A stretch of DNA of 44,066 nt from a phage. The position numbers were made by a program, and so were the translations under genes. Each line of letters begins with the position of its first letter. The first letter of the stretch is position 1. Positions 3,440 through 22,529 of the stretch are shown piece by piece. The notes under the pieces are model-generated. The model searched no databases. It saw only the letters and a program-made list of their open reading frames with translations, and had not been told where the DNA came from. The DNA lies in NCBI GenBank assembly GCA_029093145.1, contig GCA_029093145.1_4347.1; one strand, 5' to 3'.

Positions 3440-4909
3440 ATGTTAACTATGAACGGTCAGAATCAGGGTGTTAAGACAAAACACCGGGAATGGCTGCATC
3501 ACTTCGATAAATGGCAGAAGGTACGCCACGCGCTGGAAGGCGACCTTATTCGCTATCTGCGCAACGTCGGGAAGAACGAACCTGACCCGACCTACGCAGC
3601 CCAGCGCCAGGAAGAATACGAGAACGGTGCTATCTGTTACAACTTCACTAAACGTACCCTGGCGGGGATGACGGGGTCAGTGATGCGCAAAGACCCTGAG
3701 CAGATTATCCCGCCTGAACTTGAGTACCTGTTGCACAACGCTGACGGTTCGGGTGTAGGGCTGTGGCAGCACGCGCAGGATACGTTAATGGAGATTGACT
3801 CGATAGGACGCGGTGGGTTGCTGGTGGATGCCCCGGAAACAGCCGCAGCAACGGCGGCAGAGCAGAACGCGGGATTATTAAACCCGGTAATCGCATTCTA
3901 TACCGCGGAGAACATTATCAACTGGAGACTCACCCGCATCGGTTCAGTGAACCGCGTGACGATGGTTGTATTGCGTGAGGCATGGGAATACTCGGAACCA
4001 GGCGCTGAGTTTGAAACAAAATTAGGCGAGCAATACCGCGTCCTTGACCTGATTGACGGTCGCTACCGCCAGCGCATCTACCGCTTCGATGCCGAAGGTG
4101 GTGCACAGGATGAAGTAATCGAAATCTTCCCGGAACTCGGCGAACAGTTGCGCGGTAAAATCCCGTTCACGTTCATTGGCGCAAGCAACAACGACGCCAC
4201 TATAGACGATGCGCCTTTACTGCCGTTAGCTGAGCTAAATATAGGACACTTCAGAAATTCGGCCGATGTGGAAGAGGCCAGCTTTATAGTAGGTCAACCG
4301 ACACTGTTCATTGCCCCCGGCGAGAACATGAGCATGGAGCAGTGGAAAGAAGCCAACCCACACGGCATACGCATGGGGTCGCGTTCAGGCCACAACATCG
4401 GCTCCGGCGGAAATGCGTTTCTGGTTCAGGCGGCGGAAACTAACCTCGCCAAACAGAATATGCTGGATAAAGAGAATCAGGCCATCCAGATTGGCGCGCA
4501 GCTTATCACCCCGACGCAGCAAATCACCGCGGAATCGGCCCGCCTGCAACGCGGCGCCGACACGTCAGTCATGGCAACAATAGCACGTAATGTAAGCATG
4601 GCGTATACCGATGCGTTGCGCTGGGTTGCGGGTATGCTTGGGCTTAGTGAAGATACTGAGATTGAATTCAAACTTAACATGGAGTTCTTCCTGCAACCGA
4701 TGACCGCTCAGGACCGTGCACAGTGGATGGCGGATATTAACGCGGGCCTGTTACCAGCTACTGCTTACTATGCGGCATTGCGTAAAGCAGGCGTAACCGA
4801 TTGGACCGATGAGGACATTCAGAACGCTATTGGGGACGCACCGCTGCCGTTGGGTGCGGTTGCTCAGGTAGCAGGAGAAATTCCGCAGTCCGCGCAACAA
4901 CAGGAGTAA
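3440..4909 (+). CDS. portal protein
   Basis: 489 aa ORF directly after terL with SD AGAGGA; canonical position. Confidence 0.8.
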   Translation: MLTMNGQNQGVKTKHREWLHHFDKWQKVRHALEGDLIRYLRNVGKNEPDPTYAAQRQEEYENGAICYNFTKRTLAGMTGSVMRKDPEQIIPPELEYLLHNADGSGVGLWQHAQDTLMEIDSIGRGGLLVDAPETAAATAAEQNAGLLNPVIAFYTAENIINWRLTRIGSVNRVTMVVLREAWEYSEPGAEFETKLGEQYRVLDLIDGRYRQRIYRFDAEGGAQDEVIEIFPELGEQLRGKIPFTFIGASNNDATIDDAPLLPLAELNIGHFRNSADVEEASFIVGQPTLFIAPGENMSMEQWKEANPHGIRMGSRSGHNIGSGGNAFLVQAAETNLAKQNMLDKENQAIQIGAQLITPTQQITAESARLQRGADTSVMATIARNVSMAYTDALRWVAGMLGLSEDTEIEFKLNMEFFLQPMTAQDRAQWMADINAGLLPATAYYAALRKAGVTDWTDEDIQNAIGDAPLPLGAVAQVAGEIPQSAQQQE

Positions 4910-4913
4910 ATAG

Positions 4914-4940
4914 AAAGGCCCCGCTAGGGGCCTTAGTTTT
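4914..4940. terminator. bidirectional terminator hairpin
   Basis: AGGCCCC-GCTA-GGGGCCT then TAGTTTT; sits between convergent genes. Confidence 0.6.
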
Positions 4941-5592
4941 AACGTATATTAGCCGCACATTTACGCACAACCCGAGGTATCGCCTCTTTCAGTTCACCCC
5001 ATGTATTAACGGCCTCCATGTCAAGAAGCGTCACCAGAGCTTTCTGGATGTCACTTCGCAACTGATTGGTCTTCGCATCCTGAGAGTCCCATGTATCGAA
5101 ACCCGTTACGTCGCGGATATCTACGGATTCCTTTACCGCTTTAGCCACCTGTATGAAGTGTCCACTGTGGCCAATTCTTCCCTCCGTGCGCTCGATCATT
5201 CGACTAACGGCAGCGTTAAGCTCGACAAAGCTCACCGCGCCAATGTTTCGTAGTTCTACCTGCCGTTGTGTGATAAAGCGGTCGATAACGAGGAAATGGA
5301 AATAGGCGCTGTATTGCTCAGCAATATATACTGCCAGATGGAGACATGCAAAGGTGCGACCGTTTCGGCCTTTCGTCGCCCTTATGGCATTCTCGATTCC
5401 GAGTTGTTTTTCGCATTCCTCCTTGAAAATCTTGAAGCCATCCGTTGCCATGACCTGGCGAAGCTCTCTGGCCCCCATGCCGTTGTCTAAACGCCAACGG
5501 TTCATCTGGTCAACCAGCTCGTTTACGTTAATAAAGTTTTCACGGTCAAAAGTGATTTCTCCATAAGGGAACTCTAATGTTTGCAGTTTCAT
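4939..5592 (-). CDS. KilA-N/APSES-type DNA-binding protein (antirepressor-like)
   Basis: N-terminal region resembles KilA-N pattern (INVNELVD ... GRTFACLHLAVYIAEQ); antisense to flanking structural genes; SD AGGAGA. Confidence 0.4.
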   Translation of the reverse strand: MKLQTLEFPYGEITFDRENFINVNELVDQMNRWRLDNGMGARELRQVMATDGFKIFKEECEKQLGIENAIRATKGRNGRTFACLHLAVYIAEQYSAYFHFLVIDRFITQRQVELRNIGAVSFVELNAAVSRMIERTEGRIGHSGHFIQVAKAVKESVDIRDVTGFDTWDSQDAKTNQLRSDIQKALVTLLDMEAVNTWGELKEAIPRVVRKCAANIR

Positions 5593-14265: not shown

Positions 14266-14296
14266 AACTAAGGCCCCTTTCGGGGCCTTTTTCTTA
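14265..14296. terminator. bidirectional terminator
   Basis: AAAACTAAGGCCCC-TTTC-GGGGCCTTTTTCTT; A-run and T-run on both sides of the hairpin. Confidence 0.65.
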
Positions 14297-14848
14297 CAAA
14301 CCTAATTTTAAAGCAATGTCTATAACGTTCGATTTAACGTCACCCGGTATGATGTAGGTGTCGTAATCTTTTACACCACTAACATCGTACAGATAGCCAC
14401 GGCTATCGCAGATGAACGTATAGCCGTCACGATGGAGGCGGACGATTCGCACGTCATGCCCCGCGGCGACGATAGGGGCAACTTCACTGGCGAATCCACC
14501 ATCGGACACTACAAAAACTTCGTCGCCGTCAGGCAAGTTTTCAGCAAGATACTTACCGAAATAATCATCGCCGAATACCGGTTTAATGAATTGCTCAGAA
14601 ATGGCAATCATTAACCGGCGGCGGGACAACCCATTAAGAAAACCCTCGGGTTTTTCTTTCCGCGCCCGGTCGTCGTAGCCGTCGAGAAATTCGTGGTAAG
14701 CATCCTGGCCTAACGCTGCCAAAGCAATATTGAACATTGGATTCTTGAAACTGGTAGTTCCTTTCGCAAAGCCCATTTCTACCAGCGCCATAGCAAGCGT
14801 GTCTTTCCCGCAACCCGCAGGGCCATTAAGAATAATTACCTTAGCCAT
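14294..14848 (-). CDS. P-loop kinase, dNMP-kinase-like
   Basis: Walker A GPAGCGKDT at N-terminus; SRRRLM segment recalled as typical of T4 gp1-type dNMP kinases. Confidence 0.65.
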   Translation of the reverse strand: MAKVIILNGPAGCGKDTLAMALVEMGFAKGTTSFKNPMFNIALAALGQDAYHEFLDGYDDRARKEKPEGFLNGLSRRRLMIAISEQFIKPVFGDDYFGKYLAENLPDGDEVFVVSDGGFASEVAPIVAAGHDVRIVRLHRDGYTFICDSRGYLYDVSGVKDYDTYIIPGDVKSNVIDIALKLGL

Positions 14849-15336
14849 TATTTATCGCTCCCGTGTGGTTTTAAGTGTGTAGAGTTCCCGTTACAGTCGT
14901 ATTCGGTAACTGCGTGTGCAGTTATGCCGAGGTCACGGAAATGCTTTATTACCGCTGGAGAGTCGTCGAACGCACACAAGATTCTTTCCAGTCCGAAAGC
15001 ACGCAACACCTCTTCTTTAATTACGATGTCTTTTCTGTTGTCGTGTTTGCTGCGCATGATTAGCGTGTCAAACCTAACGTTATTCTCTCGTAACCATTCG
15101 CGAGTCTCCTCCTCAGCGTCATCACTTCGCCCGGTAAGGATAATTATAGTAAGTCCGGAATGCCACAGTACGCTACACAAATGGATATTGTCGTATATCG
15201 GAGCGTCATCTTTGCAGGCCATGTTAAATGGCTTCCACGCCCACGTTTCTCCGTAGTTATCTTTTGGTAACAGGTGTAAGCGATGGGTACCGTCGGCCAA
15301 TGTCCCGTCTAAATCGAAAATTACAATATCTTTCAT
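14848..15336 (-). CDS. HAD-superfamily phosphatase (Pnk-phosphatase / 5'-nucleotidase-like)
   Basis: HAD motif I IVIFDLDGTLA, motif II ILTGR, motif IV AFDDS; overlaps flanking genes by 1-4 nt. Confidence 0.7.
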   Translation of the reverse strand: MKDIVIFDLDGTLADGTHRLHLLPKDNYGETWAWKPFNMACKDDAPIYDNIHLCSVLWHSGLTIIILTGRSDDAEEETREWLRENNVRFDTLIMRSKHDNRKDIVIKEEVLRAFGLERILCAFDDSPAVIKHFRDLGITAHAVTEYDCNGNSTHLKPHGSDK

Positions 15337-16463
15337 CCCAGCATCTCCGGTGAAATAGTTAAACGTGCGACCTCGCCATATTCGGCGCTATAAGTAATTA
15401 CATTTGCACTGCGGCCCGACATCCATCCGCCGCGAGAGGCGTAGGCGTCTTTAGCCGCTAAGGTGCGGTGTTGCTCAACAATCATGTTACGGCTTTCTAC
15501 AATCTTCTGGTGGTGCAGATGGCCTACGTGGGCGTAGCTGTAAACACTCTCGCCGAACGCTTTACGGAACTTGGCAATCATAACCGGTTCGATAGCGTCG
15601 AATCGTGCTTTATGCCCGTGATGGAAGAACAGCGTCGTTTTGCCGTGTTGCACCATCTTGTAAACATCCGGCGACGTATCAACAATCACTCGGCTGTCGT
15701 TTGAGTATAAAACCGTGAACATTTCAGCAAGCCATACGGAGCCAACAGGGTCGTGGTTACCTTGAACGATTAAAAGTTTTACTGTGTGATGCTTAACCAG
15801 CGCCATATCAACAACACGGCGGACCATACGAATCATGTAACGTACCAGTTTCTGATAGCGAGTATCCGCATCTAATACATGGCGCGACTCGGGGGTAACG
15901 GCATCAAGACTATCGAAGTGTGCGAAGTCCCCAAGCAGGTTAATAACTCCTGTTCCTGCATCCGGTGCTTTCTGAAACGCCGCGTCGAACCACCGAGAGA
16001 ACAGGTCTTCTGCAATCTTCATGTCCCAGTCGTCGCCGCTCTCATCGGCCCATGCCAGCATACCGAGATGGAAATCAGATACCGTGTAAAGATTGAGTAG
16101 TTTATCGTCACGTTTGGCGCGCGCCGCTTTAACAGGCGCAACGGGCGTAATCTCTGACTTCATGCCCTCTATTACGGCTTTCATCAATTCAACCTGACGT
16201 TCGGCGTCGGTATCAGTCTTAACCCATTGCAACTTAGTGTTGCCGAACTCGTCCACCAGGGACGACGTTCCTTTAATCTTGTAACCGTCTGGTACAAGGT
16301 GGCTAACGTCGCGCCCGTGGCCCACGCCTTTCTTAGCCAGCTTCGCTTTACGGATACGAATTACGCGGTCTGAGATGCCGTATTTACGGGCGATATCTAC
16401 ATTCTTCATACCGGCGTTCAATTCTTCCTGCAACTGTTCGTCGGTTATTTTCTTCCGGGCCAT
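15333..16463 (-). CDS. HTH-fused calcineurin-like metallophosphoesterase
   Basis: N-terminal HTH-like region; metallophosphoesterase motifs SDFHLG, GDFAHFD, GNHD, HHGH, GHLHH; SD GAGGAA. Confidence 0.65.
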   Translation of the reverse strand: MARKKITDEQLQEELNAGMKNVDIARKYGISDRVIRIRKAKLAKKGVGHGRDVSHLVPDGYKIKGTSSLVDEFGNTKLQWVKTDTDAERQVELMKAVIEGMKSEITPVAPVKAARAKRDDKLLNLYTVSDFHLGMLAWADESGDDWDMKIAEDLFSRWFDAAFQKAPDAGTGVINLLGDFAHFDSLDAVTPESRHVLDADTRYQKLVRYMIRMVRRVVDMALVKHHTVKLLIVQGNHDPVGSVWLAEMFTVLYSNDSRVIVDTSPDVYKMVQHGKTTLFFHHGHKARFDAIEPVMIAKFRKAFGESVYSYAHVGHLHHQKIVESRNMIVEQHRTLAAKDAYASRGGWMSGRSANVITYSAEYGEVARLTISPEMLG

Positions 16464-17292: not shown

Positions 17293-17652
17293 TTGCTCCA
17301 GTTCGCCCGTTGGAACTTCATAACCCGCCACAAACGGCGGGAATTTGACAGTATCGCCGATGGGCATAAAGCCGCGCTAATTGCTATGGGGGTTATGCAA
17401 GACGCGCCGGATGCAACGCAGGCCGCTGGGCCGGAATGCCCCCCTGAGCTACTAACCACATTTGAGAAGTACAGGGAAATTAAATTCACCCGCCGAGTGG
17501 ACGACGACGGCATCAAGATGTACCCGCGCGAGCAATTACGATGGTCAGATTTAGTGGCGTACAGCACCGTTTCAGGCCAGAATATAGGGATGTTCGAATC
17601 CGACATCATCATGAGCTTAGACGCTATTTTCGAGGGTAGAAACGATGGCTGA
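17293..17652 (+). CDS. tail assembly chaperone extension (gpT-like), possible frameshift product
   Basis: Open in -1 frame from 17257, overlapping the end of the gpG-like ORF; classic G/GT arrangement before tape measure. Confidence 0.4.
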   Translation: MLQFARWNFITRHKRREFDSIADGHKAALIAMGVMQDAPDATQAAGPECPPELLTTFEKYREIKFTRRVDDDGIKMYPREQLRWSDLVAYSTVSGQNIGMFESDIIMSLDAIFEGRNDG

Positions 17653-19984
17653 TGTAGCTAGTTTAGTAGTAAAAGTATCAGAGCAAGGCGCGAAAGCTAC
17701 ATCAGACCGTCTTGATAACCTTTCCAAGTCTGCAAAGGTAGCCGGAGCTGCGGTAGCGGGCCTCGCTTCCATCGTCGCCGCTACCGCTTACAAGGCCGCA
17801 CAGGAACTGGTAGAATCCCAACGGCAACTGGACAAGATGTCCGCCAGCCTGAAAACACTAACCGGAAGCACGCAGGGTGCAAGACAGGCGTTAAGCATCC
17901 TGCAAGACTTCGCGCGCGACACTCCGTATGGCCTTGAACAGGCGGTAGAGGGATTCCGTAAACTTGTGGCGCTTGGTCTTACACCGTCAGAAGAAGCGTT
18001 GCGTTCCTACGGAAACACCGCCGCTGCTATGGGTAAAGACCTGAATCAGATGATTGAGGCGGTTGCAGACGCTAGTACTTTTGAATTTGAGCGCCTTAAA
18101 GAATTTGGTATCAAGGCCAAACAGAACAAAAACGATGTTGAATTTACATTCCAGGGTACTACTACGGTAGTTAAGAAGAGCGCTGCCGACATCGAGCAAT
18201 ACCTGCTCAACATCGGTAACGTAAACTTCGCGGGGGCTATGGCGGACCAGGCCAACACACTTAACGGGGCCATCGCCAGTGCCAGCGACTCATGGTCGCA
18301 GTTAAAAATGACACTGGCTACCAGTCTTGATGTTGGTGCGCTCGCCGAACCTATCCGATACATCGATGATTTAATCCAGGAACTTAACGCACAGGTTGCA
18401 TCCGGTGAACTTGCCGCAGAGATGCGTATGTGGGGTGACATCGCGTCGGAAGTAGGAAGCGCGATAGAGATGTCGTTCGACGCGGCATTTGGTTTTGTAG
18501 GTGACGCGATAAATGGACTGAATGAACTTTGGGATTTTAGCAGTAAAAGTATCACCGATAGCGGCGAACAAACGGCGACAACCATCGCGGAATCAGCTGC
18601 CGATGCGCTCGATTTCATCGCGGAAGAATTTACCGCGATGGAGCGCTTCTTTGAAGATATGGTTAAAGGGGCACAGGATGCTGGCCGGTTGGTGAAAGCT
18701 GCCTTCACACCAGGGGAATCTGTAGACGTAGCAAAAAACATTAACTTCCAGCTAGGGATGGCACTGGATACTCAGCGCGATGTTGCGGACCTGACCCGTA
18801 AAAGTTTCCGCGAACAGGTGGAGGCTCAGCAAAATATCGTCGCGCTTAAACGCGCAGCGTATGACATCGACAAAGAAGCCGCTAAGGAAGAAGGGCTTAG
18901 TAAATTTAAGGTAACTGGTGCTGGTGGCGGGTCCGAAGATGATAACGCTGGTGCAAAAGCCGCCAAGAAAGCTGCGGATGCGTTCGAGCGCCAGAAGAAA
19001 GCCGCCGAGGATTTCTACTACCAGTCGATTCATCTCAATGATGACGTATTCCAGAAAATAGAAGCCAACCAGGAACAGCAGTTAACCAAGCTACAAGAGT
19101 TTTACAGCAACCAGCTTCTTAGCGACCAGCAATACGAGAACGCCAAGACGCAGATTATGCTGGAGGCGGACACCGCACGTCAGGAAGAATTGGATAAGCG
19201 CGAGAAAGAACGGCAGGAGAAAAAGCAGAAAGGCGACGACTTCATGGCTCAGATTATGGGCCAGAACGCTACTGAGCTTGAGCTTCTCGACATCCAGGAA
19301 CAGCAGAAACTGGCGGTAGCCGATAAGTACCGTGAGCAGGGTCTTATTAGTGAGAAGCAGTATCAGGCTGCGCTTAATGCCATCAACGAGCAGTACGCCA
19401 CGAAGCGTGCCGACGCAACGGCAACGGCCTTCGGTAACATGGCCTCAAACATCGGTTCGGCTTTGGGCGAGGCTTCTGGCGCGTACAAGGCATTCGCTAT
19501 CGTGCAGGCCACTATAGCCACGTACACCGCGGCTATTGAGGCGTATAAGTCAACAGCGGCTATCCCTGTAGTTGGCCCGTTCCTGGCTCCTGTAGCTGCC
19601 GCTGCTGCCGTTGGGGCGGGTATGGCTCAGGTTTCCGCTATCAGGTCAGCACGTGAACAGGGCGGTCAGTTATCAGCGGGACAGGCTTCCACCATCGCCG
19701 AGCGCGGAAAACCAGAAGTTATCATGCCTGCGGGTGCATCGCGTGTGCGCACCGCGCAGCAGATGAAAGAAATTATGGGGCAAAACGGCGGCAGTACCGG
19801 ACCAGCCAATATCAGCATTATAAATAACACCAGTGCACAAATTGGCAACACCAGCGTTGAACAGGACGAAGAAGGCCGCCTACGTATCATCATCGAAGAA
19901 CAGGTAGCCGCCTCTTTGCAGAATAGCAACAGCAAAATATCGAAAGCGAGGAAGGCTACAAGAAACGCACCGGGCTTTAAGTAG
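17645..19984 (+). CDS. tape measure protein
   Basis: 779 aa, Ala/Gln/Glu-rich, follows chaperone pair. Confidence 0.85.
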   Translation: MADVASLVVKVSEQGAKATSDRLDNLSKSAKVAGAAVAGLASIVAATAYKAAQELVESQRQLDKMSASLKTLTGSTQGARQALSILQDFARDTPYGLEQAVEGFRKLVALGLTPSEEALRSYGNTAAAMGKDLNQMIEAVADASTFEFERLKEFGIKAKQNKNDVEFTFQGTTTVVKKSAADIEQYLLNIGNVNFAGAMADQANTLNGAIASASDSWSQLKMTLATSLDVGALAEPIRYIDDLIQELNAQVASGELAAEMRMWGDIASEVGSAIEMSFDAAFGFVGDAINGLNELWDFSSKSITDSGEQTATTIAESAADALDFIAEEFTAMERFFEDMVKGAQDAGRLVKAAFTPGESVDVAKNINFQLGMALDTQRDVADLTRKSFREQVEAQQNIVALKRAAYDIDKEAAKEEGLSKFKVTGAGGGSEDDNAGAKAAKKAADAFERQKKAAEDFYYQSIHLNDDVFQKIEANQEQQLTKLQEFYSNQLLSDQQYENAKTQIMLEADTARQEELDKREKERQEKKQKGDDFMAQIMGQNATELELLDIQEQQKLAVADKYREQGLISEKQYQAALNAINEQYATKRADATATAFGNMASNIGSALGEASGAYKAFAIVQATIATYTAAIEAYKSTAAIPVVGPFLAPVAAAAAVGAGMAQVSAIRSAREQGGQLSAGQASTIAERGKPEVIMPAGASRVRTAQQMKEIMGQNGGSTGPANISIINNTSAQIGNTSVEQDEEGRLRIIIEEQVAASLQNSNSKISKARKATRNAPGFK

Positions 19985-19987
19985 TAA

Positions 19988-20022
19988 CAAAAAAAAAAAT
20001 AAGGCCCGAAAGGGCCTTATTT
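19988..20022. terminator. bidirectional terminator (A10 / hairpin / T-run)
   Basis: AAAAAAAAAAT-AAGGCCC-GAAA-GGGCCTT-ATTTAT. Confidence 0.7.
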
Positions 20023-20835
20023 ATGCGGAACTTTAGGCTTCACTCCGTCCCTACAAAGGGCCAAAATCTCTGGAATTATCTTAGGGTCTGAGGTTAGCAT
20101 CCACTCCGTGGATCCGTCGAAGCTGCCATAGCCCCACTCATTCGACGCTATTTTGTAAGTGTTATGGAAATACACTTCTAGCATTCGTATTTTTGCGCCG
20201 TTATCGTCGCGATGAATGCCAAGCACTTCGAAACCAAAGGGGGTAGCGTTACGCAGGTGACGTATCCGCTGTTTAGGCCTGTTTGATATCCCTATCTTCA
20301 CGAATCGGCCGCATTCACTAAGTAACGCATAGAGGAACCCAGTTTTATTAGGGTCGTACCCGCTAGAGGCACATCCAGGACATCCTTGATTCTGATGAAT
20401 GATATCTGCTATTCGCTGGCTAAACTCACCATGGATATCGCAAAGCCGCACCGCTTTGCTATACTGATTCTTATACCCTCCTTCGAAGCGCAAGAACTTC
20501 CACTTATCACTCACGGCGTAAATCTGCGAGATGCGTTCCTCCTCTGAGTATGAAGGTCTTCCCGCGCAACTAGGACACCCATGTTCCTTACTAATTGCGT
20601 TAGCTATCAAAGTGTCGAACTCCCCGTGTTCGGGACAGAGCCTACGTACCTTAGAATAGGCGTTTCGATAGCCGTTAGGAAATCCTACAAAACTGTATTG
20701 CGGGGCTACCTTAGCTAGTTCCTCTACTACATTGCTCTCAGGTTTTCGCTGTTTGCTTGATGAAGATTCTTTTCCACACCTAGGGCACCCAATACCTTTT
20801 TTTAATACTAGCGGCCGTTGCCGAGAAAGCCCCAT
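20017..20835 (-). CDS. T5orf172 (GIY-YIG-like) domain protein with tandem zinc-ribbon repeats; homing-endonuclease-like
   Basis: Two repeats Y(R/K)N(A/Q)YSK-(V/A)(R/V)(R/L)C-x2-HGEF ... HGCPxC; C-terminal GFLYALLSECGRFVKIGISNRPKQRIRHL resembles T5orf172; antisense between tail genes. Confidence 0.6.
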   Translation of the reverse strand: MGLSRQRPLVLKKGIGCPRCGKESSSSKQRKPESNVVEELAKVAPQYSFVGFPNGYRNAYSKVRRLCPEHGEFDTLIANAISKEHGCPSCAGRPSYSEEERISQIYAVSDKWKFLRFEGGYKNQYSKAVRLCDIHGEFSQRIADIIHQNQGCPGCASSGYDPNKTGFLYALLSECGRFVKIGISNRPKQRIRHLRNATPFGFEVLGIHRDDNGAKIRMLEVYFHNTYKIASNEWGYGSFDGSTEWMLTSDPKIIPEILALCRDGVKPKVPHK

Positions 20836-21122
20836 GTTCGCGGCAAAATAGGGTTATCTTACTAAACGCACCTGTATACCCCGCACCATCGTCCAACAAC
20901 TCGTATTTACCGCCGTGGTTGGCTAAATCAGCTAATATCCTCTCGCGGCGCTCAGGCTATAGTATTTTCCGGCACATAATCAACCTCAATAAAGAGTATT
21001 AACTAGTATACTATTCAACCATGGGGCCCGGGTCAACATAAACGTCGTGATGTTACGCCCCCTCCATGGTAGCATTGGCTTAAAGTTATTGCGATGGTAT
21101 CCAATCTACCGGGGTTTAAATA

Positions 21123-22529
21123 ATGAGCGACTTATACTTTCCACGTAGCCTTAAGCCGGTGGTATCAAAAGGCTACTCAATGACCAGACGTAACAACGTC
21201 TGGAGTGTCGATTTAGCGGGTGGCGGGGTGCGTCAGGGCCGTGACACGTATTATGATGTGTTCCCAATAAGCGTAACCCTGATTACATCCGCAATGGGGC
21301 GGCAGGCGTTTCTGTCGTTCCTCGAGAAAGTCGATGGTGGCGCGTCAAGTTTCTGGATGGCGCACGACTTCGGCATGGGTATTGAGGATTATCAAGTCAC
21401 CATTACATCCACCGTCGCCGAGTCCACTGAAGACGGCATTAACTGGACGATTACTTTCACGGCAACCGCCGAGAAATCACCGTTCCAGGACCTTGAGAAC
21501 CAGTGCCTGATTAACAATCTGCCAGATTTGTACGGCTGCTATGGTGACTGCCTGGGTAGTTTCCTGAAAATATACGCTAACTATGAGACGACGTTCCCGC
21601 GCATCTGGAGCAATGAAGGGCCTGCAGGATACCCGCCGATTAACCTTCTGGCATCCACGCTTGATAGCCGCATTGTGTATGATGGACCACAGGTTTACTA
21701 CATCAACAGAAACGGTAATCTTGTGCAGTCAGCAACTAATGAATGGCCTCTTACGTTTATTAATGGGGTTGCTGTTGGGCGAGTTCCGCCTGAGGATGAA
21801 TCAACAAATAGTATCTTATATTCTGCAGACTTCAATAATTCATCGTGGAGTAGAACAAGGATAACAGTTGAGAATGACGTTTTATCTTCCCCTCTCATGC
21901 ATAGTCTTGCCGACAAGTTAGTGGCAACATCAGTAAATGGAGCGCACGGATTAACTCAACCAATACTACCAATCGGCTCAAATGAGTACTCTGTTAGCTT
22001 TTTCATTAAAGCTGGTGGTCTGGGGAAATCTCTTGTGCAAATAGGGACATTTTCAAGCCAGACCAACCCTAACCCAGTAACTATTGACCTTATCAGCGGA
22101 GTTATAACGTCAGCCAATGATTTCACAAGATGCGGAATATTACCTATCTCAGATGACTGGTATTTCGTCTGGACATCATCAACAACAACTTCATCACCAA
22201 GCAATATCCGGGCTGCGTGTTTTCTTACCGATCAATCAGGTAATACCACATTTACAGGAAATGATGTGGATGGTATCTATCTATGGGGAGCAAAATTAGA
22301 AAAATCAGAATTTGCCACTTCGCCAATAATAACCAATTCTTCTGCTGTAACCCGCCAAGCGGCATCGGCAAAAGTAGTAATGAACGACGCAATAAGCATC
22401 GACATAACCTATTCCGACGGCTCTGTGGTAAACGTTCAGGCTGTTGACGGTTATGCCGCCATCCCCCAAGCGGATTCTTCGTGGGGCAGTAAATACATCA
22501 CTCGTATCGACTTTAATGTGGGCGGTTAA
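21123..22529 (+). CDS. minor/distal tail protein (putative)
   Basis: 468 aa ORF first after tape measure; ATG with upstream GGGG. Confidence 0.5.
   Translation: MSDLYFPRSLKPVVSKGYSMTRRNNVWSVDLAGGGVRQGRDTYYDVFPISVTLITSAMGRQAFLSFLEKVDGGASSFWMAHDFGMGIEDYQVTITSTVAESTEDGINWTITFTATAEKSPFQDLENQCLINNLPDLYGCYGDCLGSFLKIYANYETTFPRIWSNEGPAGYPPINLLASTLDSRIVYDGPQVYYINRNGNLVQSATNEWPLTFINGVAVGRVPPEDESTNSILYSADFNNSSWSRTRITVENDVLSSPLMHSLADKLVATSVNGAHGLTQPILPIGSNEYSVSFFIKAGGLGKSLVQIGTFSSQTNPNPVTIDLISGVITSANDFTRCGILPISDDWYFVWTSSTTTSSPSNIRAACFLTDQSGNTTFTGNDVDGIYLWGAKLEKSEFATSPIITNSSAVTRQAASAKVVMNDAISIDITYSDGSVVNVQAVDGYAAIPQADSSWGSKYITRIDFNVGG

Follow-up and report, generated by a model that had tools for sequence, protein, structure and literature searches.

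Free-standing homing endonucleases with a GIY-YIG domain are exemplified by the Seg proteins of phage T4, which move as a cassette with co-conversion of flanking markers. The systems closest to the locus described here are the homing endonuclease genes (HEGs) of the T5orf172 class in ICP1 and other phages, which contain one to several zinc-finger domains of the CapR, DUF723, or DUF4397 type (Barth, Dunham & Seed 2023, PMC10448857). They adjoin essential genes, including that of the tape measure protein (TMP), vary in their presence, and are often frameshifted, truncated, or altered by in-frame deletions of repeats (PMC10448857). In addition, different HEG classes can share one location, and homing of the putative HEGs of ICP1, about half of which belong to the T5orf172 class, is not experimentally verified (PMC10448857).

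The gene under study lies in a phage DNA stretch of 44,066 nucleotides (contig GCA_029093145.1_4347.1; hereafter the window). As judged from its sequence, it fits the description by Barth et al. in every respect tested and can be classed as an inactivated member of that known HEG kind. As in ICP1-type T5orf172 HEGs, tandem zinc modules at the N terminus are followed by a C-terminal T5orf172 domain, and the gene stands free beside structural genes including that of the TMP. Its presence is likewise variable, decay occurs by frameshift, stop codon, or module deletion, and different HEG classes are found at one site. Unlike the ICP1-type HEGs, it resides in a Kagunavirus of E. coli, for which donor-like, empty, and product alleles are available at base resolution. 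The nuclease domain is C-terminal, whereas that of the T4 Seg proteins and I-TevI is N-terminal, and the DNA-binding part consists of tandem Cys/His zinc modules as opposed to the zinc finger and helix-turn-helix of I-TevI. These modules match the Pfam homology domain of CapR from the PLE satellite of Vibrio cholerae. Netter et al. reportedly described PLE CapR in 2021 as a domesticated repressor without a nuclease domain; the window gene differs by containing such a domain with conserved residues.

Most probably, the locus is a free-standing T5orf172-CapR HEG cassette with its own candidate promoter and terminator, which was transferred into a Kagunavirus junction and is now decayed; herein, we infer homing from the comparison of alleles. 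The initial annotation had proposed a free-standing homing-endonuclease-like mobile gene. This agrees with the T5orf172/GIY-YIG domain, the polymorphism of the site, and a 1.6-kb island around the gene, but it had overlooked that the gene is a broken 319-codon allele. The coordinates of all features are given in Table 1.

Table 1. Features of the nuclease cassette and its flanks, in window coordinates
Feature	Position	Strand	Basis or remark
TMP gene	17645-19984	+	ORF list
Putative left co-conversion tract, TMP 3' end	19604-19984	+	identical to L009 from 19604
Left copy of duplicated junction, CCGGGCTTTAAGTAGT	19970-19985	+	functional TMP end and stop
Predicted intrinsic terminator, 11-bp stem then U11	19989-20022	-	hairpin 19997-20022
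Surviving 272-codon ORF	20017-20835	-	half zinc knuckle of module 1, modules 2 and 3, nuclease domain
Predicted T5orf172/GIY-YIG nuclease domain	residues ~160-265 of 272-aa ORF	-	Pfam, family alignment
A7 run (plus-strand T7), one base more than A6 of intact alleles	20797-20803	-	+1 frameshift, about codon 60
Decayed 5' gene part, codons 1-47 of 319-codon allele, most of zinc module 1	20836-20977	-	other frame
Amber codon TAG at codon 7, six codons after ATG	20957-20959	-	TGG>TAG
Full-length start ATG	20975-20977	-	Shine-Dalgarno GAGG at 20984-20987
Candidate sigma-70-like promoter of nuclease gene, TTGACC-17-TAGTAT	21008-21036	-	consensus match only
Right copy of duplicated junction, CCGGGGTTTAAATAATG	21109-21125	+	ribosome-binding region and start of downstream gene only
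Next tail gene, 468 aa	21123-22529	+	ORF list
Putative right co-conversion tract, first ~85-125 bp of downstream tail gene	21123-21247	+	donor-type sites

The best match of the 7 kb around the cassette is the E. coli siphophage vB_EcoS-22664BS2 (genus Kagunavirus), with 93% identity over the aligned parts. No phage record covers at least 80% of this query, because about 1.1 kb of it is absent from the relatives. The gene order runs from the tail assembly chaperones over the TMP gene and the antisense ORF to a 468-aa tail gene and further tail genes. The initial reading of a 272-aa minus-strand ORF that sits alone between plus-strand tail genes is hence correct. The downstream tail gene, which measures 465 aa in 22664BS2, corresponds to PHROG 384 in its N terminus and to PHROG 11600 in its C-terminal part. 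After the junction of VIPECOTH07 (L004, 4212-4712), fFiEco02 (L005, 3319-3819), and a contig of the Logan assemblies (L007, 5355-5855), the tail gene is only 166 aa long, and this large length polymorphism directly adjoins the nuclease site. Two other stretches of the structural region are also antisense, and neither is a nuclease cassette: 14294-16463 (-) comprises a dNMP kinase, a polynucleotide kinase, and a DNA repair exonuclease, and the ORF at 4939-5592 (-) was rejected as a nuclease gene, being an amidase. No paralogue of either the T5orf172 or the HNH nuclease gene discussed below occurs elsewhere in the window.

The net insertion amounts to 1138 bp (19985-21122) in antisense orientation and is located exactly at the overlap of the TMP stop and the next start (TAATG). 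In empty relatives, the stop and start overlap as ...GCGCCGGGGTTTAAATAATGAGCGAC, and the TMP gene of the window ends with ...CCGGGCTTTAAGTAG (19970-19984). At the right border, positions 21109-21125 are identical in 17 of 17 nucleotides to the TMP end of the empty site, the empty allele also reading CCGGGGTTTAAATAATG; hence, the last approximately 15 nucleotides of the TMP gene are duplicated, and both flanking tail genes therefore stay intact. A repeat search did not report this duplicated junction, the longest exact common word being 5 nucleotides.

On the opposite side, the strong A10/hairpin terminator of the initial annotation is borne out for the hairpin (-16 to -18 kcal/mol, z of about -4.3), whereas the run is an A11 (19989-19999). 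Because the U-tract lies on the minus strand, the hairpin is predicted to end the nuclease transcript and not that of the TMP gene. The stop codon of the nuclease gene (20017-20019) sits in the stem flank of this hairpin. With stems that are identical or similar, the loop (20008-20011) of the window and of the HNH-bearing phages reads GAAA, and that of L007 and fFiEco02 reads TTTC; the palindrome appears flipped between lineages. The scan that yielded the candidate promoter found this one site versus 2.0 expected in shuffled sequences. For the cassette of fFiEco02, a like promoter architecture, TTGCCA-17-TAGCAT, was read by eye from the sequence. When 19500-21600 was scanned with Rfam, neither a group I intron nor any other RNA reached the gathering score, and terminator-like matches below the threshold were all that appeared. 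With no such intron and with the cassette lying between two complete genes, an intron- or intein-encoded HEG was rejected.

Comparison of the TMP/tail junction among relatives, which the initial annotation had suggested, reveals a polymorphic site that is empty or occupied by an HNH or a T5orf172 gene, so that the latter is not universal. With a 400-bp probe across the junction, the empty form is contiguous in 72 Kagunavirus records. Five phages (SHAK7693, fEg-Eco19, XY1, VIPECOTH07, and, with a partial match, MirsaeidiM_Esher4) contain an unrelated antisense HNH gene of 216 aa that belongs to PHROG 953 and shows a weak AP2 match. Two phages, fFiEco02 (FE2_028) and DUEC01, carry at the same junction a T5orf172 gene that is 42% identical to that of the window. 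These two Kagunaviruses also rank best among the 737 phage records that match at the protein level, every one of which stays below 60% identity. The window-type gene itself was found in none of the phage collection, where a search with the cassette DNA matched junction ends only, and 5,426 E. coli genomes likewise lack any match to the cassette. When contigs from metagenomes were scanned for an exact pattern, L009, a viral contig of 44.6 kb from the human gut, was the sole match.

The cassettes of FE2_028 and its homologue in DUEC01 (PHROG 681) have the insertion point and antisense orientation of that in the window, and the hairpin, promoter region, and right-junction remnant of FE2_028 are homologous as well. 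They differ in the 42% protein identity, in FE2_028 having two zinc modules (248 aa) as opposed to three, and in its TMP 3' end being mostly of the empty type. As read from the junctions of SHAK7693, XY1, and VIPECOTH07, the HNH cassette has the TMP 3' allele and hairpin of the window. This shared left boundary suggests that nuclease genes replaced one another behind a common terminator. In the HNH cassette (3486-4220 of SHAK7693, L002; equivalents in L003 and L004), which is AP2-like in part, the stop codon is also located inside the hairpin flank, and the right side replaces the first approximately 11 codons of the downstream gene (MSSLKFPASLKP versus MSDLYFPRSLKP). The record of vB_EcoM_SHAK7693 (OR594180.1) carries an Autographiviridae/Kayfunavirus taxonomy line; since its tail module is collinear with the Kagunavirus-like window and about 88% identical, this label looks wrong.

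The extent of the transferred DNA becomes apparent in a three-way comparison. Within 19604-21208 (1605 bp), the window differs from the HEG-bearing L009 at six positions, namely three A-run lengths, one substitution, and the two lesions described below, and the divergence outside is 9.8%. Compared with the empty 22664BS2 (L001), it is identical at 19346-19626 and 21237-21436 and strongly divergent between them; among the final 20 codons of the TMP gene, 14 are different from those of the empty allele, in every case synonymously. Informative sites on the left are of the recipient type at 25 positions (19351-19603), followed by 73 consecutive donor-type sites (19627-19984). Right of the cassette, six donor-type sites (21137-21236) are followed by 24 of the recipient type (21248-21428), which places the breakpoints at 19604-19626 and 21237-21247. 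In the window, the cassette is embedded in roughly 1.6 kb of L009-like sequence (about 19604-21247) within a 22664BS2-like backbone. Two substitutions at the right-hand crossover, at 21209 and 21218, are found in the window only and differ from the donor-like and the recipient-like genomes; they could be scars of heteroduplex repair, or the true donor could be other than L009 itself.

An L009-like patch centred on the cassette is what repair of a break from an HEG-bearing template would leave, and the circumstantial case for nuclease-driven conversion is strong. Mosaicism elsewhere leaves room for ordinary recombination: Kagunavirus genomes are mosaic in general, and further donor/recipient switches, unrelated to the cassette, occur inside the TMP gene. 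The cassette could accordingly be a passive passenger of such recombination, with the protein acting as a nuclease of anti-satellite defence or inter-phage exclusion in place of homing, as known for Odn of ICP1, a T5orf172 protein that acts against a satellite (PMC10448857). This is quite improbable given that one and the same intergenic point is used by three different nuclease genes, each preserving both neighbours, that the donor-type patch has the cassette at its centre, and that the nuclease gene decays readily, as expected of a selfish rather than a useful gene.

The surviving ORF supports the assignment to a nuclease family. The two internal Cys/His repeats described initially are confirmed by a local alignment score of 139 versus 21.5 +/- 4.3 in shuffled sequences (z = 27), and z-scores of the modules range from 11 to 27. 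In Pfam, two stretches of the ORF match CapR (PF21817, 39.4 bits versus a cut-off of 24.2), and DUF723 is matched at 30.7 bits (cut-off 20.9). The Cys ligand columns C67/C87/C90 and C132/C152/C155 are conserved in the family alignment. By these matches, the repeats belong to the CapR/DUF723 class of predicted zinc-module DNA-binding domains. The C-terminal T5orf172/GIY-YIG-like domain, also recognised initially, is recovered by T5orf172 at 20.3 bits (cut-off 20) and by MUG113 at 22.9 bits (cut-off 22.3), both of which are borderline; for the intact allele P0001, the scores are 25.7 for MUG113 and 19.7, just below the cut-off, for T5orf172. PHROG 681, annotated as endonuclease, is matched at 2e-58. 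A search of NCBIfam gave zinc-ribbon matches only, all below threshold.

In an alignment of 15 family sequences, Y169, K180, G182, R190, E220, G241, T243, and E244 are invariant and H224 is nearly so, and all of them are present in the window ORF. The catalytic-type residues of GIY-YIG enzymes, whose presence the initial annotation had left to be checked, are hence found as the GIY-like Tyr (Y169), the YIG-like K180/G182, an Arg (R190), and a Glu (E220); we infer that they correspond to the catalytic residues of I-TevI. Built on 15 aligned sequences, an AlphaFold model has a mean pLDDT of 75.8, with three folded domains at 83-92 and disorder predicted for residues 1-29. A missing GIY-YIG-like fold, named initially as an argument against the gene being of this kind, is not what the model predicts, residues 161-220 of the nuclease domain reaching 83-91. 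A Foldseek search with the model gave no significant match, and the family profile matched no PDB chain by sequence. Taken from profiles and residues, the ORF is a member of the T5orf172/MUG113 branch of the GIY-YIG superfamily and a predicted nuclease.

The gene extends beyond this ORF. The 287-bp non-coding spacer of the initial annotation (20836-21122) has to be given up: positions 20836-20977 belong to the same gene as its 5' part, read in another frame, and the true intergenic stretch is confined to the 145 bp at 20978-21122. Upstream of ATG 20835, a third, N-terminal zinc module, HGGKYELLDDGAGYTGAFSKITLFCREHGAFSATAASIKK, is encoded in another frame and connects to GIGCPRCG of the 272-aa ORF once the A7 run is shortened by one A; intact proteins read ...SIKKGIGCPRCG across this site. 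Codon 7, an amber codon in the window, is TGG (Trp) in L007, L009, all full-length cluster members, and FE2_028 of fFiEco02. By DNA alignment to L007 and L009, the two intact comparison loci, the lesions are pinned, in plus-strand letters, to one additional T at 20797 and a T for C at 20958.

A search with the repaired 319-aa translation retrieves P0001, a protein of 319 aa with 94% identity at 100% query coverage. The metagenomic cluster of P0001 comprises 47 members, and ten of the 15 members listed are 319 aa long; one of these ten, P0125, equals the repaired protein at 100% identity and contains Trp where the window has its stop. In P0134 (237 aa), another member, a deletion between repeats has removed one zinc module and kept the frame. 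Three more members, P0129, P0132, and P0133, are annotated at 307 aa with Met13 as the start, and further N-terminal lesions may be hidden there. The intact alleles are under purifying selection: their overall dN/dS is 0.21, with 0.11-0.15 for modules 2-3 and the nuclease domain and a higher 0.45 for module 1. From the intact 319-aa relatives and the mapped lesions, the true unit is read as a 319-codon gene of which the window contains a freshly inactivated allele; by its sequence, this copy is a recently inactivated, three-module nuclease gene, interrupted by TAG at codon 7 and shifted in frame by +1 at about codon 60. The lesions are very recent: between the repaired allele and that of L009, synonymous differences are absent and a single nonsynonymous one exists.

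The remnant might nevertheless be expressed from ATG 20835, either as a nuclease with two modules and an altered specificity or, by domestication, as a CapR-like DNA-binding regulator. Two-module relatives do exist in FE2_028 and P0134, the invariant residues of the nuclease domain are all intact in the remnant, and PLE CapR sets a precedent for domesticated zinc modules (PMC10448857). Such a function is nonetheless quite unlikely. No Shine-Dalgarno-like sequence precedes ATG 20835, so that efficient synthesis of the 272-aa remnant is improbable and translation would be poor or absent; the first 29 residues of the remnant are those predicted to be disordered, and the ORF is open simply because the lesions are so recent. 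Programmed -1 frameshifting on A_AAA_AAG as a means of restoring the full protein was rejected, given that the shift needed is +1, that intact relatives have an A6 without any shift, and that the amber codon lies upstream. That both lesions arose in sequencing or assembly, with the real phage making the full 319-aa enzyme, is very unlikely indeed: an A6/A7 homopolymer is a classic error site and the allele is otherwise 100% identical in protein to the intact P0125, but the G>A substitution creating TAG is no homopolymer error, and the Logan assembly of SRR17830873, independent although it may derive from the same reads, matches 3846 bp of the window at 100% identity, both lesions included.

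The preferred reading, a HEG cassette that was transferred and has since decayed, would operate as follows. The intact 319-aa enzyme would read DNA via three tandem Cys/His zinc modules and cut via its C-terminal GIY-YIG-fold domain. In a co-infection, it would cut the empty junction allele or nearby TMP 3' sequence, and repair from the HEG-bearing genome would copy the cassette together with its flanks. A cut of this kind may have driven the transfer that produced the window genome. Since the transfer, the amber codon at codon 7 and the frameshift at about codon 60 have inactivated the window copy, which is in the decay phase of the HEG life cycle. Both protein-level changes on the window lineage are inactivating, which could mean that the enzyme is costly in the new backbone and was selected against. 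A more specific version is rather doubtful, namely that the window, 22664BS2, and L009 record a single T5orf172 homing event followed by near-immediate knock-out of the nuclease, the enzyme being costly or the two-module remnant being active with changed specificity.

For phage biology, a recently inactivated HEG is ordinary, and the locus owes its value to being a clean natural test case and to a correction of annotation. What would be listed as a 272-aa protein plus a 287-bp spacer is to be annotated as a disrupted 319-codon gene. HNH-type and T5orf172-type nuclease genes appear to have occupied one tail-gene junction in succession, with a terminator in common. The donor, recipient, and product alleles form a natural trio for a direct test of T5orf172 homing, for which the intact allele (L009/P0125), the empty target ...GCGCCGGGGTTTAAATAATGAGCGAC... 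of 22664BS2-type phages, and the mapped putative co-conversion tracts would serve as material, with the window copy as a natural null allele.
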